Positions 1-42,726 of a stretch of 64,000 nt of DNA are shown one piece after another. The DNA is taken from contig CDROCS010002451.1 of assembly GCA_977020255.1 (NCBI GenBank), forward strand, positions 558,001-622,000, in the 5' to 3' direction. Every line of letters starts with the position of its first letter. Position 1 is the stretch's first letter. Origin of the DNA: Obrimoposthia wandeli (Eukaryota). The notes beneath the pieces were generated by a model. The model saw only the letters and a program-made list of their open reading frames with translations. It had not been told where the DNA came from and did no database searches. Position numbers and translations under genes: made by a program.

Positions 1-1
1 T

Positions 2-226
2 TCCAATATTGGTATTTCCATGACTGATTTCAGAGATAAATATAGTCTTTTCACATTTGTTCTTAGTCCTGATTTTGATATTAATCAAACTCAAGTTCCG
101 AAGCAGGGAAATCTAAAAGTAGAAATTAAGTTTAAGAAAGCCCTAATTAAACCAACGAATATCATCATTTATGGAGTTTTTGATTCTGAGATTCAAATCA
201 CTAAAGGTGGAACTGTGATAGTATAA
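2..226 (+). CDS. Major capsid protein (double jelly-roll, hexon-like), C-terminal fragment
   Basis: 58 of 68 aa identical to the C-terminus of the element B MCP (FTFxLSPDFDINQ...GNLKVEIKF...IIIYGVFDSE). Confidence 0.9.
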   Translation, partial: SNIGISMTDFRDKYSLFTFVLSPDFDINQTQVPKQGNLKVEIKFKKALIKPTNIIIYGVFDSEIQITKGGTVIV

Positions 227-257
227 ACGGAAGAAAGTACGCTGAAAAATAATAATA

Positions 258-633
258 ATGAAGTAAGAATATTAATTTATATAATATAACTAATTATAGT
301 TCAGATGAAATACTAATCAGCGGCAGAAAACTTCTCGACAGTGGATTTATTGGAGTCTATAGTCTTGATAATATCCCGGAATTTACTCGAACGGGAGGAT
401 ATATCATTAATACACAGTCATCGAATTTGGCTGGAGAACATTGGATAGCAATACATGTTGAACCAAAAGAAATTTTTGTTTTTGATCCCTTTGGGTTTTA
501 TTACCCATCAAAATTAGTATCTGCAGTGCTTGATTCTTCAAAACAAGTACATTTCAATAAGAAACATTATCAAAATGTTTTAACACAGACATGTGGACAA
601 CTTTGTCTGCTATGGTTAAAGTATAAACATTAG
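258..633 (+). CDS. Adenain-like cysteine protease, join(258..262,300..633)
   Basis: ATGAA|GTAAGA, 37-nt intron, TAG|TTCAGATGAA gives MNSDEIL.... Catalytic motifs GEHW, FDPFG, YQ and TCGQLC are present and the frame is open. Confidence 0.88.
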
Positions 634-669
634 ATATAAACAATTTCAAATAAAATAAATTGAACAAAA

Positions 670-1160
670 ATGTCTGTTTATTTTATCGATTTTGAAGCTT
701 TCATAGATTCAAATAAAGAATTCGTAATTAAAGAGCTATGTATTATGAATGTTGATAATATTTTGTTTCCTAAACATTATGTATTTAAAATGAAACCTAT
801 GTGGAACAAAATGGATTATTTTACAAACAGAATCAATAGATATTTAATCAAAAGATTTCATCATCTGAAACTAGTTGATGGTAATAGTTTCTTTAATCAA
901 ATTGAAATTAATCGATCAATTAAACGAGACTGTGATTTAGATAAATCTATTTTTTATGTTATTGATAAATATAATGGCTTTAAATTTCAAACCTTAAAGA
1001 AATACTTTCCTGAAATGAGAATTATAAATTATTCAAAAAGTTTAAAAGAAATTATTTAATCTAATATTAAATGTCCGTATATTGAACATGGGTCGCACTG
1101 TGCATATAAAAATGCTTTGCTGCATGTCTTGATTTCAAATTAACTATACTTAATAAATAA
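670..1160 (+). pseudogene. Conserved Polinton ORF with DEDD exonuclease-like N-terminus (IDFEAF) and Cys/His C-terminus; premature TAA at 1057 plus a frameshift near 1110
   Basis: Colinear with the intact element B copy (40543-41052). Sequence after the stop still encodes CPYIEHGSHCAYK. Confidence 0.75.
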
Positions 1161-1254
1161 TTATGTAATAAAAACCCATATTTTTATAAATACACACACA
1201 AAAGTATGCATATTTTAATTCTATACATGCTGACCTGTTGCGTCACATCATGCA

Positions 1255-1284
1255 TATAAAAGGATGCGATTGTATTTGTTCAGT
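1255..1284 (+). promoter_or_regulatory. Putative PolB core promoter: TATAAAA (1255) and Inr-like TCAGT (1280)
   Basis: Canonical ~27-nt TATA-to-Inr spacing, ~20 nt before the predicted ATG at 1301. A TGCGTCA bZIP-type site lies just upstream. Confidence 0.5.
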
Positions 1285-1300
1285 CTTTTACTTTTCAATT

Positions 1301-4300
1301 ATGAACAACGTAAGTTTTATTTCCTAATTTTATATTTTATTTAGTGTAATATTTACAAAACGCCATGCTATGATGTACGTCATGAGCAGTGCAAACAGAA
1401 GATGAAGTCGTACTACGGAAGGAATATGAACCGGTGTTAGTTCTACATCTGTCCGCAATGTGAAACTGCTGTTGAGCAGGAGTGGACCGATTTCATGAAC
1501 CAGCATCGTGATCATCAGGTGTTCTTCCAGACAAGATCCAAGCGAGATATATTTTTATCATCACAACAACAAAAGACAAATTCATCGGTTCCTGTCACTG
1601 CTTCTCCTGTTACTCTCGCAGCTTCTCCAGTTCCTGTCACTGCTTCTCCTGCTCAAGTTCCTGTCGCAGCTTCTCCAGTTCCTGCTCAAGTTCCTGTCAC
1701 TGCTTCTCCAGTTCCTGATGCAGCTGAATATGTTAGTAGAATTCCCACTATTTTACCAGCACCTACCCGCAAGCGAAGTGTTATGCCCACTTCAGGTAGC
1801 TCTGCTGCAAAATTTACTAGATTTGATCGTGTTAGGCGTAAGATGGGATTAAGAGGGACTTTGGAAACTTTATCATTAGATGTTTCTAATGATAATATGA
1901 CCGATTTAGTGGTTCCGGATAGTATTTTAGTTCAATTAAGGGATTCTATGCGGAAATATTCTACGTGTAAGGTCCAATTCGGAGTGTGTGTCGAATTCAT
2001 GAACGAATCCGAGAGACGCGCTTGGAATTTTTCTAATAAAGGACTTCCCTTCGATGATGGATTCATAGAAGCGGGAGTTGGGTTAATCAAGAAGAAGAAT
2101 GAGAATTACTCACAGTGTGGGAGTAATTGGACAGTGAGTAGGTTCCTAGAGATTTCGTTTGTTGTTACAAAAACAACAACGATGAACTATCTCCAGGGAA
2201 GTAGTTACATTCCTACTCCACCATTGTTAGCGCTCTCACATTGTGTGATAAATGTGCAGAACACTAACAACTTTTGCTTTTTATATAGCATATTAGCTTT
2301 GCTTTTCCGCGATGTATTTCGCACTAATCCTCAACGGGTTAATCAATATGATGGCCTGTTGAGTGAATTAGCTTTTGAGGAGGATGAGATGCCGATGCGT
2401 CTATGTAACATACCGCGATTTGAGAGAAAGAACCCTTCGCTCTCAATCAACGTATTTACTTTCAATAGCTTCGCGAATGGACAAACGGATAGGGAAATTT
2501 TCAAAATCCCTATGTGGATGTTATTTATAGAACTTCAAATCCGGAGGCTAGGCCAATAAACCTTCTTCTTTTAGAAAATAATGACAATTTTCATTATGTG
2601 GCCATTCCTAAACTCAATAGGTTACTGAATTATAGGAATAAAGGTGTATCGAATTGCATCCGGTGTACTTGGTGCCATAAGTGTCTCCACGGGTTCCGGA
2701 GACCGATAAGTTACGCCAAGCACGTTCCACTCTGTATGATGAATTTGGAGCATACAACACTCTATTCAATGCCTACAGATAAGTATATTGAGTTTACGGA
2801 CTTTTCCAAGACCATTTCTCCTCCGTTTGCTGTTTACGCAGACTTTGAGGCTGTGCTGCCACCACATGGGATTCATCATCAAATCCAGCTCCCAATCGCG
2901 GCCGGTATGCTCATGTCTCCCGTTGCAGCTACGATCGGGTACACACACGATTATTCGGTTTTCACATGAGAATCTTGTGTTGTTTTCTTTCTACAAAAAT
3001 TGGAGGAATTGGCAAAACACGTTGTTCTCCCATGGTATAAAAATCATGCAATCGAGGTGATGCGTCAACTTACACAGGAACAGGTATCGAGTTTCAATGC
3101 TGCAACAATTTGTTACCTGTGTAAGAAGAGGCTAGTTAACAAAGTTCGAGATCATGATCACATGACGGGCGAGTACCTCGGAGCAGCGCATTCAAAGTGC
3201 AACTTGTCAAGGAGACTGAACCGATCCTTTCCTGTGATTTTTCATAATTTGATGGGATACGATATGTACCACATACTTAAGCATGCGTTAAGTCAATTTC
3301 CGCACTGGAGTATCTCTGTCATTCCTCAATCGACAGAGAAATTTCAAGCTATGTTGGTGCATATTGATGGAGTCTGTATTCGGTTTATAGACTCATTACA
3401 GTTTTTGAACAGCGGACTTGGGAAACTGGTCGAGAATCTGGGTGTCACTCCTCTGACACATTCTGTTTTCCCACAACATTTGGTAAGCAGCAAGGGCATC
3501 TTTCCCCACGATATGGCTGTGTCAGAGACTGCTCTCCGTGCTATTACAAGTTTGCCACCAAAATGGAATGAGAAGATCAAGCCGAAAGAGTACAAGTTGG
3601 CAAAGAAGGTCTAGACTCAAAGCGGCTGCACATCACTCTGGGACTATATGCTGGTGTACATGAAGATGGACGTCTACCAGCTTGCTGACGTTTTCACGGC
3701 ATTCCGAAGCAAGGCCATCGCAGATGACGGACTGGAGCCACTCAATTTCTTCTCCATACCTGGTTTGTATTTTTCACTAAGTAAATTTAGCAACTTTTAG
3801 TAATTTATTTCCATTAATTAATTTTAGTTAATGCTTTGTAAATAATTGATTAAATATGTTTTAGTAGTTTGTCTGTATTTATATTTATTTTCTTCTCACA
3901 GGACTAACTTTTGCGAGTGCATTCAAGTCGCTGCTTCGTCCAGATTCCTCTGATTTTACTGTTGCTTCCACCTCTGCTGCACTTCCTGCTCCAGTTCCTG
4001 TGCCAGTCGAGCTAATCCAAGATCCGGAGATGTACAGTCTCTTCCGATCTGGGATTCGCGGTGGAATGACCTTTGTCAATGAACACCGCGTTGACGCCAT
4101 CAACGGTACTGAACATTTATACATTGACGTTAATAATTTGTACGGGTGGGCCATGTCCCAGTTTTTACCTTGTGGTAACTTTTCGTGGGTAACCGATAGA
4201 TTCATGTTGGGGAAAATTATTACTGAGCTTCAATCTACTGATCTCAGCTGTAGTCGCTTTGCTCATTTATTGGAGGTAGACATATCTATTCCTAATGAGC

Positions 4301-5364
4301 TACACAATAAATTTGATGACTTACCGCTTGCGCCAATTAAACAATGTCCACCTGGGAGTAAGATACCTAAATTATTATTAACACATTATCCTAAAAAACA
4401 TTATGTTGTTCATTCTAGATTGCTACAAATGTACGTTAGACTTGGTGCTAAGGTAGATTTTGTATATAGAGCAATACAGTTTGAACAAACTAATGTTTTT
4501 TCTAAATACATCGAGGATAACTCAGCAAAACGGGCTGCAGCTACAACAGATTTTGAGAAGGATTATTACAAACTGAAGGTAAATTCTTTATTTGGAAAAC
4601 TCATTGAGAATCTAATGAAAAGAATTAACCTTCGGATTTGTAATACTCCACAAAAGCTTGTTACCTATTGTAGTAAAGCGCACTTTCGTAGGACAATCGA
4701 AATCGATACAGACCATATCGCAGTTCTACTGAATAAGGAAAATATCGTTTTGGATCGTCCTAGTTATATAGGCCAGGCGGTTTTAGATTTAAGTAAACTT
4801 CGTATGTATGAGTTACAATATATGCAGTTGGAGAAATATCGAGTGCAATTTAACTGCGATATTAGAATTATAGCGGATGACACTGATAGTTTTTTCTTGA
4901 AGTGTAATAATGTAAATGTTCAAGAATCATTGTTACCTGCTATGATTGCTGATGGGCTGTTGGATACCTCGAAATTTCCAGAACATCATCCGCTTTATAC
5001 GACACGCAATACAGCGATAGGTAAATTTAAAGATGAGAGCAAGGGACTGTTTAGCTATAAGCAAGGAATATTTCTACGTCCAAAATCATATAGCTTAGAG
5101 ACTACAGAAGGAGAATCACAGATGAGAGCGAAGGGTATTAGTCTCCAACAAACTAACATACGACATGCTAATTACCTAGCAGTGTATGAGACTGGGATTA
5201 GTGGGCGAGTGCAACAACAACGCATAAGCTCGATAAATCACCAACTTTTTACAATTCATTTGAGTAAAATTGCACTGAGTAGTGCTGATGATAAACGTAA
5301 GTGGGTTGAGAAGAATCGATCGGTTGCCTACGGTCACTTTTTATACCCGGATGAAATTGTTTGA
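1301..5364 (+). pseudogene. Protein-primed family B DNA polymerase (pPolB), join(1301..1309,1345..3762,3902..5364), disrupted
   Basis: Motifs YADFE, FHNLMGYD, FIDSLQF, GIRGG, YIDVNNLYGWAM, KLKVNSLFGK, DTDS and RPKSY. Lesions by comparison with copy B: TAG 1438, -1 frameshift ~2507, TGA 2967, TAG 3612, and GDTDS changed to DDTDS. Confidence 0.93.
1588..1725 (+). repeat. Coding minisatellite (21-bp GTTCCTGTCACTGCTTCTCC(T/A)-type units encoding VPVTASP) in the PolB N-terminal linker
   Basis: About 5-6 imperfect in-frame units are visible; copy B has a different Ala/Pro/Val/Ser-rich linker at this position. Confidence 0.85.
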
Positions 5365-5839
5365 TCTTTTATTTTGTACATCGTTTTATTTATATTTCTT
5401 ACCCTATTCTTTGTGATTGTAAGTAATATATTTTGACATTAAATAATGTCTTGATTTTATTCTTATTTACAACTGTGTATTAACTACTATTTTCTTTAAA
5501 AATTATACTTAAAATAATATACATTAATTTTGATTTAACGAGTAATATATTTCTATGTAAAAGTTTATTTATAAAAATATTATTTTGAATGTTAAAATTT
5601 TCTTTCTAAAAAATTCAATGTAAATTATTATTCTAAAAATTTATAAGTTAAAACTTTCTTTATAAAAATGTTTAATTAAAAAAAAAAAAAATTTCTTTGT
5701 AAATTTTAATTGTTTTAAAAATAAAAATGTCGGAAAATTTTAAAAAATTCGCAAAAATTTAAAGATTAAAACAAAAATTAAAAATGTCGAAAATTTTGAA
5801 TATTAAAACAAAAAATCGAATAGTAAAACAAAATTTTGG

Positions 5840-6050
5840 CACGTGGCGTGGTTGCCATGGCAACACCAACGACGTAACACACACTTATGACGCAATATAC
5901 ACCACGATATGACGCAATACACACCACATGTTACACAAAACACAACCACGTATGGCGCAACACACCCGCATATGGCGCAATACACACATACTTATGACAT
6001 AATACACATCTGTTTATGACGTAATACACACATACTTATGACACACTACA
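5840..6050. promoter_or_regulatory. Subterminal motif cluster of element A: CACGTG E-box (5840), GTTGCCATGGCAAC X-box palindrome (5851-5864) and repeated ATGACG(C/T)AAT bZIP-like sites
   Basis: Motifs read directly from the sequence; any factor binding is inferred. Confidence 0.5.
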
Positions 6051-9235: not shown

Positions 9236-11140
9236 AGATAAAGAGATTTTGATAAAGTAATCAGTTTTGTGTATAAAGATAAAGGAATTTGATATTTTGA
9301 TAAAGAAATCAGTTTTGCGTATAAAGAAAAAGGAATTTGATATTTTGATAAAATAATCAGTTTTTGCGTATAAAGATAAAGGAATTTGAGATTTTGATAA
9401 AGTAATCAGTTTTGCATAAAAATATAAAAGAATTTGATATTTTGATAAAGTAATCAGTTTTGCGTAAAGATAAAAGAATTTGATATTTTGATAAAGAAAT
9501 CAGTTTTACGTATAAAGATAAAGGAATTTGATATTTTGATAAAGAAATTAGTTTTGCGTATAAAGAAAAAGGAATTTGATATTTTGATAAAATAATCAGT
9601 TTTTGCGTATAAAGAAAAAGGAATTTGATATTTTGATAAAGAAATCCGTTTTGCGTATAAAGATAAAGGAATTTGATATTTTGATAAAATAATCAGTTTT
9701 GCGTATAAAGATAAAGGAATTTGATATTTTGATAAAATAATCAGTTTTTGCGTATAAAGATAAAGTAATCAGTTTTGCATATAAATATAAAATAATTGGA
9801 TATTTTGATAAAGTAATCAGTTTGAGTATAAAGATAAAGGAATTTGATATTTTGATAAAGAAATCCGTTTTGCGTATAAAGATAAAGGAATTTGATATTT
9901 TGATAAAATAATCAGTTTTGCGTATAAAGATAAAGGAATTTGATATTTTGATAAAATAATCAGTTTTTGCGTATAAAGATAAAGTAATCAGTTTTGTATA
10001 TAAATATAAAATAATTGGATATTTTGATAAAGTAATCAGTTTGCGTATAAAGATAAAGGAATTTGATATTTTGATAAAGAAATCAGTTTTGCGTATAAAG
10101 AAAAAGGAATTTGATATTTTGATAAAATAATCAGTTTTTGCGTATAAAGATAAAGGAATTTGAGATTTTGATAAAGTAATCAGTTTTGCATAAAAATATA
10201 AAAGAATTTGATATTTTGATAAAGTAATCAGTTTTGCGTAAAGATAAAAGAATTTGATATTTTGATAAAGAAATCAGTTTTACGTATAAAGATAAAGGAA
10301 TTTGATATTTTGATAAAGAAATTAGTTTTGCGTATAAAGAAAAAGGAATTTGATATTTTGATAAAATAATCAGTTTTTGCGTATAAAGAAAAAGGAATTT
10401 GATATTTTGATAAAGAAATCCGTTTTGCGTATAAAGATAAAGGAATTTGATATTTTGATAAAATAATCAGTTTTGCGTATAAAGATAAAGGAATTTGATA
10501 TTTCGATAAAATAATCAGTTTTTGCGTATAAAGATAAAGTAATCAGTTTTGCATATAAATATAAAATAATTGGATATTTTGATAAAGTAATCAGTTTGCG
10601 TATAAAGATAAAGGAATTTGATATTTTGATAAAGAAATCCGTTTTGCGTATAAAGATAAAGGAATTTGATATTTTGATAAAATAATCAGTTTTGCGTATA
10701 AAGATAAAGGAATTTGATATTTTGATAAAATAATCAGTTTTTGCGTATAAAGATAAAGTAATCAGTTTTGCATATAAATATAAAATAATTGGATATTTTG
10801 ATAAAGTAATCAGTTTGCGTATAAAGATAAAGGAATTTGATATTTTGATAAAGAAATCAGTTTTGCGTATAAAGAAAAAGGAATTTGATATTTTGATAAA
10901 ATAATCAGTTTTGCGTATAAAGATAAAGGAATTTGATATTTTGGTAAAATAATCAGTTTTTGCGTATAAAGATAAAGGAATTTGATATTTGGATAAAGAA
11001 ATCAATTTTGCGTATAAAGAAAAAGGAATTTGATATTTTGATAAAGTAATCAGTTTTGCGTATAAAGATAAAGGAATTTGATATTTTGATAAAATAATCA
11101 GTTTTTGCGTATAAAGATAAAGGAATTTGATATTTTACGA
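9236..11140. repeat. ~48-bp tandem array (AAAGGAATTTGATATTTTGATAAAGTAATCAGTTTTGCGTATAAAGAT), about 40 units with higher-order repeats
   Basis: Units are directly visible; variant blocks recur about 775 bp apart (e.g. 9381 and 10157). Confidence 0.95.
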
Positions 11141-11401: not shown

Positions 11402-14117
11402 CAGGGTTTCTCAACCTTTTTTCACCACGGCCCCCTTTAGTTTGCAGCAAATTGCTGTGGCCCCCCTCTACTATGGACAAAAAGATTACATCGTATACGT
11501 ATTGTTTTCAATTATACTATTCTGTCATGGAAACATTCAAAAAGATAATCAATGAGAAAACTATATTTAAAAAAAGTTAGTGTGACCCTTGCGCTTGGCG
11601 TTTGCCAACAAGTGTAGTGAAATCTGGAGCAATTTCAGAAAGTCGTAAACGGATTTCTGCATTGTCACACAACTTGAGATTCATCTGCTGTTTTGCGAAC
11701 GAATGAAGGACAACTGAGAACCCCTTCTCAGCTAACACCGACGTCGGTAGATTAACAATAAAGGGATAAACCTTCTTGAAAATTTCCGGATAAATTTCTG
11801 AATTTTCCAGCCATGCTGCCACCCAATTCTGCTTTGACATGCTGATCATTTTGTCATCTCCGAGAACTTGACATAACTCCATTTGAATGTTCTCAGGAAA
11901 ATCGATGATTTGATCGACTGTCATGACGTGAAGACAATCAATATATGCTGGAACAGTCAACACAATTAAATCCTCAAATCTTAGCTGAAAGTTTGTATAC
12001 AGGACTTCCAAGTGCACTAAAATGATGTCTCGCAAATCTGGATTGCAAACATCGTTGGCCAATTTTGGGAAATGACTGAAGTTACCAGCACGAATACTTG
12101 CTGCCCAAACGATCAATTTGTTCATAAATGATTTGATAATTCGCTTGGCATCAACAATATTGAAATTTTGTGACTGCATAACCATGTTAAGCTCGTTTAG
12201 TTTTTCCAAATATTGCCTCAGATATAAAATGGTGCTTTTTGCTTTCAATCAGTTTGTTTGTGAGATTAGCATCTCTTTCGCTCAAGAATTCAACAACTCT
12301 GTCAAAAAGAGCGACAAATCGCGACAGACAGTTTCCCATCGAGAGCCACCGTACCTCGGTATAGTAAAGCAAGCATTTAAAGTGCTCATCTTGACAAGCT
12401 TCACGAAAAAGGCGGTCTTGTAAAGCTCTTGACTTTATTTTGTTAATTGCTGAGACAACAATGTTAAGACAATCCATCAAAGTTGTTCTGCCCAAGTCTT
12501 TCGCGACCAAATTCTCACGGTGAAGTACACAGTGCATTGTAAAGATGGTCCTGTCTTGCAGAAAGCGACCGACAACACCTTGCTTTTTACCCACCATAGA
12601 TGGGGCACCATCAGTGCAAATGGATATCATGTTTCTCTTGTCTATACCATGATCCTCGAAGTACTTACAGACTGTGTTATACACAGATTCGCCTGTCGTG
12701 TTTACCACAGTTTTGATAAACAACAACTCTTCCTTGAGTTGTCTATCCTTGACGAAAAGGACAAATGCCAAAACAACCGCTTGGTTCGAAAATGTGCTTT
12801 CATCAAGCGTCAATGAGAATTGTGAATTGTGAAGATCATTTGTGATGATGAATTCCACATTTGCAGCCATATCAGAAATACGTCGCGATATGGTGTCATT
12901 TGAGAGAGGAATCGATACGAGCACTGACTGTGGATTTGATACTTTGGCAACATTAAATGCTTCCAAGATAGCAGGTTTAATTAACTGCTCTGCCAGTGTA
13001 TGCGCTCTACCCTGTTTCGCCATTAAATATGCAATTTTATATGATGCTGTTAAGCCAGAAGTAGAGTTCTGAGGAACCACAAATTTTCGAAATTGGGTTG
13101 AGGCTGTTTTCCTCTGATCACGAAGCTGAGTAAAATATGCGCGCGGTTTTGTTTCAATGTCAGGATGCTTATTTTGGAGATGAGCCTCAAGTTTTGATGG
13201 TCGCATTGAGTCATTGGAGAGCACAGTGTTACAGACAATACACTTAGGAAGTTGAGAATTACTTTGGCTTGCAATGAATCCGAAACGTAAATAATCACAA
13301 TTATACTGTCTGCACTTTTTCTTGCTGCTCATTGTTAACTAAAAATCAGAAATGAAAATTGTTTACAAGGGTAACGTGAGCAAAAAGACAAATAGAAAAA
13401 CAAGATCTGTATGTGTGTACATTCAGATATAGTGAATGACAAAGAAGAAGAAAGAAATCAACCACTGACTCATTCAAAACAAACACAAGTGCACGTTTGT
13501 GAGTTAGGTAGGTAGCATTTTACAATGGCAGCGTATTTTGGGCATGTACACATGAAGTGTGACACTCTTTTCTTCACACGCTGAGACACAACACGATTAC
13601 TGATTTTTATATGTAATGCTGTTGTCCCTAAACTGTACTGTACTCATACGAGTGCGCGCTTGATGTGATGATCAGCAAGAAATGAATGCGTCGTGACTTT
13701 TGCACAGGTTAAATTTATCATTAACATATCCGTATGATGCGCACATGTACAAATATACAAGACAGTCCATAGATTACTCAGGATGATGATTATGCACATG
13801 CCACATCCGCCACACAAACTTTTGTGGCGCGATGATATTTTTGCAAAGGCATATTATGATGTTTTACCGTCGGCCCTCATTGGGCTGGTACGCCCACGGA
13901 ATAAGTTGACGCGTCGCGTCCATATGTATCTAGAAGTCTATACTCTGTTTTCATTCCATGTCAAACATTTATTTGTGGCACACGTGTGCAGCCATCGAAG
14001 TGTTTAACCCAGTGAAAACAGGGGTGTTAATTTTTTATTTTTGTTTGGCTCGTGTGGCCCCCCTGGCAAAGTGTGTGGCCCCCCAGGGGGCCCCAGGGCC
14101 CCTGTTGAGAAACCCTG
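11402..14117 (-). mobile_element. hAT transposon, Buster/Charlie (ZBED5/SCAND3-like) family, 2.7 kb
   Basis: Perfect 14-bp TIR CAGGGTTTCTCAAC, 8-bp TSD GTCTAGTG on both sides, and a transposase ORF inside. Confidence 0.96.
11577..13332 (-). pseudogene. hAT Buster-type transposase (~585 aa) with one frameshift in an A-run near 12238
   Basis: BED finger CIVC...HLQNKH, LDES, TDGA, CVLH, EVRW and C-terminal PTSVLAEKGFS. The two ORF-track ORFs overlap at a single frameshift. Confidence 0.93.
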
Positions 14118-36045: not shown

Positions 36046-37597
36046 TTATACAACCTCGTCCGGGTATAAAAAGTGACCATAGGCGACTGAACGGTTTTTC
36101 TCCACCCACTTGCGCTTATCATCACTACTACTTAAGGCAATTTTACTTAACCTTACAGTAAAAAGTTGATGATTTATATACGTTGTTGTTGTACACGCTC
36201 GCTAACGGCACTCTCATATACGGCTAAGTAATTAGAGTGCCTAATACTCGTCTGTCGGAGACTAATACCTTTCGCTCTCATCTGAGATTCACCTTCTGTA
36301 GTCTCTAGGCTATATGATTTTGGTCGTAGAAAAATCCCTTGCCTATAACTAAATAATCCTTTACTCTCATCTTTAAATTTTCCTATCGCTGTATTAAGCG
36401 TCGTATAAAGCGGATGGGTTTTTGGAAATTTCGAGGTATCCAACAGTCCATCAGCAATCATAGCAGGTAACAGTGATTCTTGAACATTGACATTATTACA
36501 CTTCAAGAAAAAGCTATCAGTGTCACCCGCTATAATTCTAATGTCGCAGTTAAATTGAACTCGATATTTCTCCAACTGCTCATATTGTAGCTCATACATA
36601 CGAAGTTTGCTTAAATCTAATACCGCCTGGCCCATGTAACTAGGACGATCCAAAACAATATTTTCCTTATCCAGTAAAACTGCAATAAGGTCCGTATCGA
36701 TTTCGATTGTCCTACGAAAGTGGGCTTTACTGCAATAGGTAACCAGCTTCTGTGGAGTATTACAAATCCGGAGGTTAATTCTTTTCATCAGATTCTCAAT
36801 GAGTTTTCCAAATAAAGAATTCACCTTCAGTTTATAATAATCCCTCTCGAAATCTGTTGTAGCCGCAGCTCTTTTGAGAGAATTATCCTCAATATATTTT
36901 GAAAAAACATTAGTTTGTTCAAACTGTAATGCTCTATATACAAAATCTACCTTAGCACCAAGTCTAACGTACATTTGTAGCAATCTAGAATGCACAACAT
37001 AATGTTTCTTAGGGTAATGTGTTAATAACAATTTTTCAGTCTTACACCCTGGTGGACGCTGTTTAATGGGAGCAAGGGGAAGATCGTCGAATTTATTATG
37101 AAGCTCGAAGGGAATGGATAAATCTATTTCCAATAAATGAGCGAAGCGACTACAGGATAAATTTGCTGATTTTAAGCTGGAAATAATATTCCCAACTCTA
37201 ACCGATCAGTCACCCAGGAAAAGTTACCACAAGGTAAAAACTTGGACATAGCCCACCCGTACAAATTATTTACATCAATGTACAAAAGTTCTGTACCATT
37301 GATGGCGTCAACGCGGTGTTCATTAACAAATGTCATACCCCCGCGAATCCCAGACCGGAAGAGTCGGTACATTTCTGGATCCTGTATTAGCTCGACTCGC
37401 ACAACGGGAGCAGAAGAAGAAGCCGGACGAAGCAGGGATTTGAAAGCACTCGTGAAAGTCAGTCCTGGAAATAAAAACATTTATTAAAATCATTGTGAAA
37501 ATCATTACTTTGAAAATCATATATCTAACAAAGACAGTCACGCATCTATATTGCAAATACTTGCATCTTTATGTAATCAATAGTAACATTTATTCTT

Positions 37598-37680
<83 letters not shown>

Positions 37681-37758
37681 AGTATCTAACAAAGACAGTC
37701 ACGCATCTATATTGCAAATACTTGCATCTTTATGTAATCAATAGTAACATTTATTCTT

Positions 37759-37794
<36 letters not shown>

Positions 37795-40411
37795 GTATCT
37801 AACAAAGACAGTCACGCATCTATATTGCAAATACTTGCATCTTTATGCAATCAATAGTAACAAGTACTACATTTATTCTTATACATGTATATATATATAT
37901 ATGTGTTAGTGTCTAAAATTAGAAAAAATTAGAAAAATACAAACCAGGGATGGAGAAGAAATTGAGAGGCTCCAATCCATCGTCAGCAATGGCCTTGGTC
38001 CGGAATGCTGTAAATACGTCTGCTAGAAGGTAGACGTCCATCTTCATATAGACCAGCATATAGTCCCAGAGCGATGAGCAGCCGCTCTGAGTCCAGACCA
38101 TCTTCGCCATTTTATATTGTGCTGGCTTGATCTTCTCATCCCACTTTGGCGGTAAGCTGGTGATTGCGCGAAGAGCAGTCTCTGATACTGCCATATCGTA
38201 TGGGAAGATTCCCTTGGCGCTCACCAGATGTTGCGGGAAGACCGAATGTGTAAGAGGAGTCACACCCAGGTTTTCCACAAGTTTTTCAAGTCCGCTGTTC
38301 AAAAATTGAAGGGAATCGATGAAACGTATACAGACTCCTCCAATATACACCATCATAGCCTGGAATTTCTCTGTTGATTGAGGTATAACAGATACATTCC
38401 AGTCAGGAAACTTGCATAGTGCGTGCTTCAATATATGGTGCATGTCATAACCCATAAGATTGTGAAAAATGACGGGAAAAGATCGATTGATTCTCCTTGA
38501 TAAGTTGCATTTCGTATGCGCTGCTCCCAGGTATTCGCCAGTCATGTGATCGTGATCTCGAACTTTGTTTGCGACTTTCTTCTTACACAGATAATAGATT
38601 CTTGCTGCATTGAAACTCAATACCTGTTCCTGTGTGAGTTGTCGCATCTCCTCGATCGCATGCTTCTTGTACCATGGGAGTACAACCTCTTTCGCCAAGT
38701 CCTCTAATTTCTTCAAAAAGGATAACACACAAGATTCTCCGGTAAAGACCGAGTTATCATGTGTATACCCTCTCGTGGCTGCAACGGGAGACATGAGCAT
38801 ACCGGCCGAGATTGGAAGCTGAATCTGATGGTGGATTCCATGCGGCGGTAGCACTGCCTCAAAGTCCGCGTAAACAGCAAAAGGCGGAGAAATCGTTTTT
38901 GAAAAGTCCTTAAACTCAATATGCTTCTCTGTAGGCATTGAATAAAGCGTTGTATGATCTAAATTCATCCTACAGTGTGGAACGTGTTTGGCGTAACTTA
39001 TTGGTCTCCGGAAGCCATGAAGACACTTATGGCACCAAGTACACTGGATGCGATTAGATACACCTCTGTTCCTATAATTAAGCAGCCTATTGAGTTTAGG
39101 AATACCGACATAATGAAAATTATCATTATTTTCTAAAAGGAGAAGATTGATTGGCTTAGCGTCCGGGTTTGTGGTTCTGTAAATGACATCCACATAGGGA
39201 TTTTTGAAGATATCCCCATCTGTTTGCACATTAGAGAACCTATTGAATGTAAATACGTTGATTGAGAGAGATGGATTCTTTCTCTCAAATCGCGGTATAT
39301 TACATAGACGCATCGGCATCTCATTCTCATCAAAAACTAATTGACTCAAAAAGGCATCATATTGATTAACCCGATGAGGATTAGAGCGAAATACTTTGCG
39401 GAAAAGTACAGATAAGATACTGTAAAGGAATCAAAAAGCGTTTGAGTTCTGCACATTGATAACGCAATGTGAGAGTGCTAACTCAGATGGAGTAGGTATA
39501 TAACTACTTCCCTGGAGATAGTTCATTGTCGTTGTTTTAGTCACAACAAACGAAATCTCCAGGAAGCGGTTCACTACCCAATTACTGCTACTTTGAGAAT
39601 AATTCTCAATCTTCTTGTTGATCCCATCTACTCCCGCATCTATAAACCCCTCATCTATGGGGAGCCCTCTATTGGAAAAATTCCAAGCGCGTATTTCTCC
39701 AATATTGGAAAATTCAACACGCACCCCGAATTGAACCTTGCAAGTCGCAAACTTGCTGACTGTGTCCCTTAAGCTAGTCAAAAGGGATACAGGAACTTGT
39801 AAATCGATGAGATTGTCATTAGAAACATCTAATGACAATGTCTCAATCGTGCCCCGAAGACTAGTATTACGCTTAACAGCATCAACCCTGGAAAACTTCG
39901 CAACAGAGCTACCTGAAGTGGACATAACACTTCTCTTGCGGGTAGATGCTGGTAACGGCGCGGGGATCATACCAACTGGAGGAGGCATAACTGGAACCAT
40001 TGATGCAACAGATGGTGGCGAAGCAACTGGACTAGTAACTGGAACAGCAGCAATTGGGGCAGATACTGGAACAGTAGTAGAAATTGGGGCAGCAATTGGC
40101 GAAGCAGCAACAACTGGACCAGCAACACGAGAAATAGTAGCAGATCTATTCTGAAAGATGGCCTTCTTGCCACGTTGCTGGAAATGACGAAGATGGACAC
40201 AATGACGCGCCACAAACTCCGACCAATCAATCTCCTCCGCGGAGAGACATACTGGACATACGTAGAATTGTTGTCCGTTGAACTTCTGTCCAAAGTAGCT
40301 CTTCATTTTTCCGTCACATTCCTTGTGACTCTCCTCGAAGCATAATTCTTTGTTCATATTGCAATTCTAGAAAGAAAGAAATTAGCAGAAAAATAACAAT
40401 AAACTTACCAT
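36046..40411 (-). pseudogene. pPolB, complement join(36046..37464,37945..40366,40409..40411), disrupted
   Basis: Same motifs as copy A, with intact GDTDS. Lesions: in-frame TGA at 39431-39433, -1 G near 37192, and a ~7-nt deletion near 36176. Confidence 0.95.
37524..37916. repeat. Three ~105-bp units plus variable (TA)n inside the PolB intron, homologous to the element's terminal region
   Basis: CTAACAAAGACAGTCACGCATCTATATTGCAAATACTTGCATC... starts at 37524, 37685 and 37798. It matches 35834-35915 directly and 49180-49277 inverted. Confidence 0.92.
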
Positions 40412-41088: not shown

Positions 41089-41466
41089 CTATTGTTTATG
41101 CTTTAACCAAAGCAGACAGAGTTGTCCACATGACTGCGTTAAAACATTTTGATAATGTTTCTTACTAAAATGTACTTTCTTTCCAGAGTCAAGTACTGTA
41201 GATACTAATTTAGAAGGGTAATATATCCCAAAGGGGTCAAAAACAAAGATTTCATTTTCTTTAACATGTATTGCAATCCAATGTTCACCACGCAAATTAG
41301 ATGAATGTGTATTGATTACATATCCACCTACTCGAGTCAAAGAGGGGATGTGGTCAAGGCTGTAGACTCCATTGAAACGCGAACCGAGTAGTTTTCTTCC
41401 GCTTTTTGTTATCTCGTCCGAACTAGAATATATATTAATTAATAAATTCAAACTGACTTACTTCAT
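41089..41466 (-). CDS. Adenain-like protease, complement join(41089..41422,41462..41466)
   Basis: ATGAA|GTAAGT, 39-nt intron, CTAG|TTCGGACGAG gives MNSDEIT.... GEHW, FDPFG, YQ and SCGQLC are present. Confidence 0.9.
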
Positions 41467-41497: not shown

Positions 41498-42726
41498 TTA
41501 TACTAGTACTGTTCCTCCCTTGGTAATTTGAACCTCAGAATCGAATACTCCATAGATTATAATATTAGTAGGGTGTTCAAGTGCTTTTGAAAACTTGATT
41601 TCTACTTTCAAATTTCCCTGTTTAGGGATTTGAGCTTGATTAATATCGAAATCAGGAGAGAGAAAAAATGTGAACAGTGTATACTTGTCCTTGAAATCAG
41701 TCATTGAAATTCCAATATTAGCATCCTTATCCAAATGACCAAGATTTCTAATTAAAGATTGCACATAAGAAAACACATAATCATCGTTTTCAAAGTCATT
41801 CGTATAAGATTCTTGATAATCAATATTTCGTGTAAGTTTAATTGAACTCACATTCATGTGTCCAAATTGAGAAACCTCATTTTTAGACTCACCTCCATAG
41901 GTAGACGTGTTTTGGAAAGCAATTAAAACAAAGTTTGGAAGTTGCATATCACCAAAAATCTGATCCTTGTAATAAGATAGTGCTCCCGTATCGATAGCGT
42001 GAGAAACAAGATTAGTTTTTCTAATAGGATAACATGCATTTTGCTTCTCCAACCCCATTCGATGTGCAACGAGTACAGATGGTTCCACCTTTACTCGTCG
42101 AACCAGCAGTTTTGCTTCCGTAATCTCAATTGCGGTTTTAATAGTATCAGCGCAAACAACACTAAAACCTACTGGATTTCTCTTCATTCGAATATGTGCA
42201 CTTACACCGGGTAAAAGATACTTTGGTTGCTTAAAGAAATCCAAATGGAGACTCCCACAAAGTGACAATACTTTAGACTTTGCAATCGAAGCAATTCTTC
42301 TTTTTTCATCATTGTCAAACCCAATTGCATCAAGATTAATCAATTTCGTATCATTACCGTAATTCAACAATGTTTCAATCATTGCTTTATGACTGTAACT
42401 AGTATTATTTCCCTCAACTTTCACATTATTGAGACTGAGAATCACATCCTTGAAAAGAGTATGCAACATGTAATTAGCTGATTTGATATCCATACCATCA
42501 TTCAAATCACCTCCACCTTCCTTTGTAACTTTCAATTTAACGAGAAATAAACTATCATTCAAATCAAGATATTGAGTATTGGATCCATTAATATTGAATT
42601 CTAAATCCGGAGAAGATGTCCTGTTAACCGTATTTGTCGGAAAATTTCTTCAAAACTAGCACTATCAACCACAACCTGAGGTATAGGTTTATCGAATATA
42701 CACAATTCAGTTTTAGCACAACTCAT
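41498..42726 (-). CDS. Major capsid protein (double jelly-roll, ~409 aa) with one -1 frameshift in a T-run near 42643
   Basis: Starts MSCAKTELCIFDKP..., typical of Polinton MCPs. Continues YLDLNDS, HTLFKDV, ETLLNY, GSLHLDFFKQPKYLLPGV after restoring one base. Confidence 0.92.

Follow-up and report, generated by a model that had tools for sequence, protein, structure and literature searches.

Gene content of the two elements

The window (the whole 64-kb stretch of DNA analysed) holds two elements, A on the forward strand and B on the reverse strand. Their relevant features are as follows.

1..226, + strand: element A, 3' end of the major capsid protein (MCP) gene (double jelly-roll), in a 410-aa frame that enters from the upstream DNA
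258..262, + strand: element A, coding part of protease exon 1 (ATG and the first two bases of codon 2)
263..299, + strand: element A, predicted 37-nt phase-2 GT-AG micro-intron (GTAAG donor, CTAAT close to the 3' end, TAG acceptor)
300..633, + strand: element A, protease exon 2, adenain domain with His/Asp/Gln/Cys motifs (PF00770, E 7e-06; 1avp profile match, E 3e-08)
1301..1344, + strand: element A, start of the polymerase gene, with a 9-nt coding exon (1301-1309) and a predicted phase-0 micro-intron of 35 nt (1310-1344)
3763..3901, + strand: element A, predicted 139-nt phase-1 polymerase-gene intron, inside the F-S-I-P-G-L-T-F motif
41498..42649, - strand: element B, open part of the MCP gene, lying immediately upstream of the protease (score 0.98; PF21738 in 65% of the best cluster)
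41462..41466, - strand: element B, coding part of protease exon 1 (ATGAA)
41423..41461, - strand: element B, predicted 39-nt phase-2 GT-AG micro-intron, GTAAG...TCTAG
41089..41422, - strand: element B, protease exon 2 (PF00770, E 4e-04)
40367..40411, - strand: element B, start of the polymerase gene, with an ATG-only exon (40411-40409) and a predicted phase-0 micro-intron of 42 nt (40408-40367)
37465..37944, - strand: element B, predicted 480-nt phase-1 polymerase-gene intron, at the same position as in A and lengthened by tandem repeats

A protein-primed family-B polymerase, an integrase, a packaging ATPase and a double jelly-roll MCP were all found in the window, as in Polinton/Maverick elements. 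The elements depart from the intronless core ORFs that are typical, though not diagnostic, of this group, since intron-like segments interrupt both the protease and the polymerase genes. The protein-primed family-B polymerase model PF03175 matched above its cut-off at 2970-3611 in A and in two frames in B. Element B also carries an rve integrase (E 1e-13) and a Pox_A32 ATPase (E 4e-06), and frames homologous to both are present upstream of element A. The MCP of element B, which gave no Pfam match by hmmscan, scored 0.98 to PF21738-bearing double jelly-roll clusters (an atlas feature with a recognition value under 2300), and a penton reading of the gene upstream of the protease was rejected on the basis of this cluster score.

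In element A, the TAA stop of the MCP gene (224-226) lies 31 nt upstream of the protease ATG. PF00770 (Peptidase_C5) was matched by the protease frames of both elements, above the cut-off in A and just below it in B. Among the adenain motifs, in an alignment of 25 rows, H47 was invariant while D62, Q91 and C98 were present in at least 90% of rows, and a profile of 25 relatives matched the adenovirus protease 1avp (E 3e-08), whose start lies within about two residues of the start obtained by splicing. Read from stop to stop, the protease frames extend over 262-633 in A (123 aa) and 41457-41089 in B (122 aa), and no Met occurs in either, in line with the preliminary description, which had noted the lack of an in-frame ATG upstream of the catalytic motifs. 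The layout that it had put forward, with ATGAA followed by a GTAAG...YAG segment of 37 nt in A (3' end TATAG) and 39 nt in B, and then by exon 2, proved exact in its coordinates. Removal of the segment does restore a shared start, as claimed: it places a Met 48 residues before the catalytic His, with Asn at position 2, in agreement with the M-x-[ST]-x-[EQD]-[ILV] start of related proteins.

Conservation of the predicted protease micro-intron

Genome-wide counts were taken over a 1.35-Gb assembly, whose 27 Wnt matches show that the host is an animal. A pattern for the junction gave 3,219 matches, versus 3 for its reversed control, and a second pattern, built on the catalytic core of exon 2, gave 4,543, versus 0 for its control; the two patterns are not nested, and these totals yield no retention ratio. 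The 30 junction loci retrieved were taken as protease loci wherever they contained the core motif. A scan of 12 element stretches for start-proximal introns (ATG, short exon, micro-intron, open frame) gave 19 hits, versus 0 to 6 in 20 shuffles. Because both results stand well clear of their controls, the junction segment is not a product of chance. The patterns revealed five protease families, with the following intron lengths: A (37 nt), B (39 nt), C (40-41 nt), D (38 nt) and E (42 nt). Families C, D and E were recovered by the patterns, three protein searches of the genome having given almost only A and B.

Compared as single natural copies, the families share 52-79% amino-acid identity in exon 2, while only 0.22-0.63 of its fourfold-degenerate sites and 0.17-0.67 of the 12 nt upstream of the ATG are identical between families. 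Intron interiors were no more alike than shuffles in eight of the ten family pairs, the exceptions being B-C and B-E; between A and B, interior identity was 0.67, shuffles giving 0.61. By contrast, ATGAA|GTAAG and YAG|T are identical in all five families. The preliminary description had read kept splice sites and phase around diverged intron bodies as the mark of selection for splicing, and the comparison of five families bears this out. Intron lengths moreover fall in all three classes modulo 3, so that only exact removal yields one common reading frame.

A comparison of other genomic copies, along the lines of a check proposed in the preliminary description, pointed in the same direction: among the first 30 loci picked by the exon-2 core alone, donor and acceptor were intact in 27, the three exceptions being one locus without the donor, one without the acceptor and one with a deletion spanning the start. 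Among the best protein matches, 29 of the 30 for A and 28 of the 30 for B had an intact junction. A pattern that requires an unbroken start before the core motif found no intronless copy in the genome; it is a fair but incomplete control, since it recognised only three of the six intronless loci from outside. Branch-point-like motifs occur at varying distances in an AT-rich background (CTAAT in A, TTAAT in B, C and E, none clear in D), with no uniform motif. Alternative acceptors 5-8 nt further on, present in A, D and E, were set aside, as their product would be out of frame.

Splicing at this very place could nevertheless be dispensed with if translation began at a non-AUG codon inside the segment, or if a leader from far away were spliced to the acceptor, as happens in adenovirus late transcripts or in spliced-leader trans-splicing. 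Flatworm spliced leaders end in AUG. On the acceptor of A, however, such a leader would read ATG TTC AGA TGA, out of frame. In-frame near-cognate codons do exist in families A to D, but they are different codons at different places, and family E has none. The adenovirus protease mRNA does use a 3' splice site of the major late unit, according to the accessible part of PMC7851563, yet a distant leader or a non-AUG start would leave unexplained the invariance of the local ATGAA|GTAAG between saturated flanks. Both variants thus appear highly improbable. Judging from sequence comparison, the protease segment is very likely a real intron. Among the read runs listed for this stretch, none is recorded as RNA. 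The four listed runs (one sample, with even cover as for DNA) contained no joint in 190-380, and none here among the joints listed for 1-6000, which has no bearing on splicing either way.

Comparison with host introns

Eight AT-rich GT-AG introns of host chaperonin genes, picked by eye, measured 41, 42, 45, 69, 85, 90, 142 and 143 nt, and those of 41, 42 and 45 nt have ends similar to those of the element introns. Since host introns go down to 41 nt, the element introns sit at the short end of the host's own range; none of these eight was as short as 37 nt. The protease segment shows features of a U2-type intron, namely a conserved GT(RAG) donor and YAG acceptor around a diverged body, a frame restored whatever the intron length, and a length in the host range. 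Beside the intron-bearing host CCT genes, the assembly (G000) also contains about 20 intronless chaperonin-like frames of 545-585 aa (e.g., L171-L190), which may represent bacterial contigs or an expanded family.

Relatives outside the genome and probable history of the intron

The six metagenome loci retrieved as DNA all lack the intron and encode a Met at the homologous position, immediately behind the upstream gene, and no intron-bearing relative was found among viral contigs searched with a single protein and with the alignment. Of 160 related proteins, 50 have the start M-x-[ST]-x-[EQD]-[ILV] at a distance of 45-54 residues upstream of the catalytic His, and position 2 of these intronless-type starts is mostly Asn and never Ser. 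Nine of the closest relatives instead carry junk N-termini, which are AT-rich and end in [N/I/F]-S-[ST]-x-[EQ]-[ILV], with Ser in nine of nine, as read-through of an AG|Y acceptor would give. A donor trace was found in all four junk N-termini that were long enough, in the form of E-V-[SC] or W-S-K, i.e., shifted readings of ATG-AA|GTA and ATG-GA|GTAAG, with implied intron lengths of 37, 40, 41 and 47 nt; the background of such traces was 12 in 23,985 positions. These outside traces were read from translated predicted proteins, not from DNA (ENA, JGI/IMG and Logan assemblies). Seven further close relatives are annotated from an internal Met. ORF finders do mis-call these genes, as had been anticipated, either in this way or with read-through junk as in the nine.

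The 50 rows of the phylogenetic tree (115 columns, midpoint-rooted) were made up of the five families, two loci and 43 database proteins out of the 160; one of these rows, P0021, had been trimmed at a misplaced anchor and still carried its read-through N-terminus. A single branch, with support of 96/91, united 22 rows: the 16 proteins with odd N-termini, the five families and P0013. Database proteins with a wrong N-terminus thus make up 16 of the 22 rows of this clade, while 28 of the 29 intronless rows of the tree fall outside it, P0013 alone lying inside. One gain and one loss (in P0013) would be the simplest reading of this distribution, and a likely one, on a short, midpoint-rooted tree. 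The absence of the intron from P0013 may reflect either loss or derivation from spliced RNA.

Predicted introns in the polymerase gene and starts of the other core genes

In families A, B and E, the start-proximal scan also marked the beginning of the polymerase gene, in addition to the protease. Within the flanking sequence covered, the polymerase start micro-intron occurs at 28 of the 30 A loci and at 17 of the 30 B loci; in A, it measures 35 nt in the window, and 26 of the 30 sister copies have 42 nt. Of 17 distinct loci chosen by the donor of the internal polymerase intron, 14 had a matching acceptor, at intron lengths of 93-425 nt. By contrast, no micro-intron was found at the ATPase, integrase and capsid frames in the 12 element stretches scanned, each of these frames starting with its own Met. 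Core genes of the intron clade would thus carry at least three introns, one in the protease gene and two in the polymerase gene. As the polymerase gene also has a start-proximal intron and an internal one, the protease is not singled out.

Introns are able to enhance expression, and intronless transcripts can be silenced. It is therefore conceivable that the intron is kept for expression, because it boosts transcription or export, or because it mimics host mRNA and thus escapes the silencing of intronless transcripts. It would fit such a benefit that the protease and polymerase genes both have a micro-intron inside their first three codons, in differing phases and, for the polymerase, at slightly differing positions in A, B and E, and that planarian Polintons are direct piRNA targets (PMC8532177, in the part of the article available). 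However, the ATPase, integrase and capsid frames show that most core genes manage without a micro-intron, and most relatives outside the clade are intronless. We thus consider this explanation unlikely.

Probable origin and maintenance of the protease intron

The preliminary description had also proposed that intron retention could gate virion maturation; regulated retention would then withhold the protease until maturation is due. The unspliced reading is indeed M-K-stop in all five families, which would provide a clean off state, and the protease gene lies directly behind the MCP gene, its ATG even overlapping the capsid stop in family D, so that a post-transcriptional control point would be useful. 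But this stop is a by-product of the donor consensus, because AA|GTAAG at phase 2 forces it, and retention would give no immediate stop in one relative with an apparent GTATG-type donor, while another has no intron at all. In addition, the donor matches the strong, canonical GTAAG, regulatory sites would be expected in the interior, most of which is unconserved, and the polymerase gene has the same kind of intron. The proposal is therefore not upheld by the present comparison, and we regard such a gate as improbable.

The sequence data are probably best accounted for by an old, constitutively spliced micro-intron of host type (U2, GT-AG), which would persist mainly because its exact loss is rare. 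A single gain within the second codon of the protease gene, in the common ancestor of a Polinton clade, would have given rise to this intron. In the nucleus, host RNA polymerase II would transcribe the element, whether integrated or free, and the U2 spliceosome would remove the micro-intron, joining ATG-AA to exon 2, likely in every productive transcript. Translation from the exon-1 ATG would then yield a 112-residue adenain able to mature capsids, while unspliced RNA would give no protease. An intron, once gained, must be spliced, and its ends therefore stay under selection; the splice sites would be held by purifying selection on the copies still spreading. Exact loss is expected to be rare because the element copies DNA to DNA without reverse transcription, and likely losses amount to one among 22 clade members. 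That two core genes keep start-proximal introns nevertheless exceeds a simple account in which the intron cannot be lost, and hints at some benefit. A bolder reading is that an undescribed, widespread Polinton clade keeps host-sized start introns on purpose, as an anti-silencing disguise or as a splicing switch for replication or virion maturation, which would also tie the element to hosts able to cut introns of about 40 nt; we hold this as possible, though doubtful.

Comparison with known systems

The window elements resemble Polinton/Maverick elements (adintoviruses) in their compact module of polymerase, rve integrase, A32-like ATPase, double jelly-roll MCP and adenain. They depart from described Polintons, as far as the accessible texts go, by the conserved spliceosomal-type introns of their protease and polymerase genes. 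Polinton core genes are called intronless both in the accessible text on a vertebrate adintovirus set (PMC8097293) and in that on a nematode set (10.1101/2022.07.12.499685). Our literature searches found no publication that describes an intron in the protease gene of a Polinton; subscription papers, Repbase entries and supplements, which lay outside their scope, could describe such exons. The intron passages of PMC11296320, PMC8502044, 10.1101/2023.08.22.554363, 10.64898/2026.07.28.741278 and 10.64898/2026.10.13.758929 contain nothing on spliceosomal introns in core genes.

Spliceosomal introns have nevertheless been described inside Mavericks, namely in the nematode cargo genes wasp and krma; according to the portion of the preprint available (10.1101/2022.07.12.499685), these are captured host genes in the cargo region, unlike the core genes that bear the introns here. 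Dinoflagellate maverick-polinton-like proviruses also contain spliceosomal introns, but these introners are, in the available part of the text, repeated, mostly young and acquired after integration (PMC11957031), whereas the protease intron occupies one fixed position, is older than the five families and has a saturated interior. In cryptophyte Polinton-like viruses, the introns reported in the accessible text are group I introns (PMC12220804).

The closest enzyme is adenovirus L3-23K (adenain, 1avp), which shares with the window proteases its family, its motifs, a nearly equal start, a gene position behind the MCP and, according to the part of PMC7851563 available, a spliced mRNA. The adenovirus splice joins a leader to an unbroken protease frame, whereas the Polinton intron cuts the coding frame itself. 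The adenovirus pTP and polymerase genes have a three-codon start exon. This start exon is a closer parallel to that of the Polinton genes than L3-23K is. The preliminary description had called dependence on the host spliceosome unusual for a maturation protease. As such, this dependence is not new, given the spliced L3-23K mRNA; the unusual part, for which the statement stands, is an intron inside the coding sequence of a Polinton core gene.

These introns would mark the elements as transcribed and spliced in the host nucleus, by the host machinery, throughout their spread. Intact elements were picked by their intronless ORFs in the accessible text of PMC8097293, and surveys that rely in this way on unbroken ORFs would leave the intron clade mis-annotated or scored as dead. 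Reads across the junction would tell true element mRNA from read-through or DNA, and would thus offer a direct test of the expression of Polinton virion-maturation genes. The clade also offers a dated case of intron gain, and of probable loss, in a DNA virus-like lineage. It aids annotation and can serve as a marker of expression. The regulatory story is unsupported.

Other features of the elements

In family D loci (L126; e.g., G000:C1:481044-484105), the protease ATG overlaps the MCP stop as ATGA, the donor lying one base after the stop, and this overlap may point to termination-reinitiation on a shared mRNA. Families B and C have an upstream ATG in the capsid-protease spacer (41492-41463, - strand, in the window), and a variable (TA)n run among B copies shifts the stop of the short frame in this spacer. 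Module orientation also varies (L157, L156): the polymerase is on the strand opposite the capsid module in family E, and the ATPase side module is inverted in D. Families A, B and C share a small frame of 80-110 aa (M-G-S-L-P/S-S-I...S-S-C-C) that overlaps the beginning of the integrase in a different reading frame (45204-44932, - strand; L095, 6524-6763). The window further contains a strongly GC-skewed stretch resembling tandem repeats, and a frame whose weak matches to zf-C2H2_12/DUF659 are transposase-like (9357-11134; 12187-13338, - strand). Element B contains a dual-specificity phosphatase-like gene (PF00782, E 1e-12; 47596-46802, - strand, extending upstream to about 47860), where an upstream ATG frame and a possible 34-nt GT...TAG segment near 47763-47730, seen by eye, may represent a further exon.
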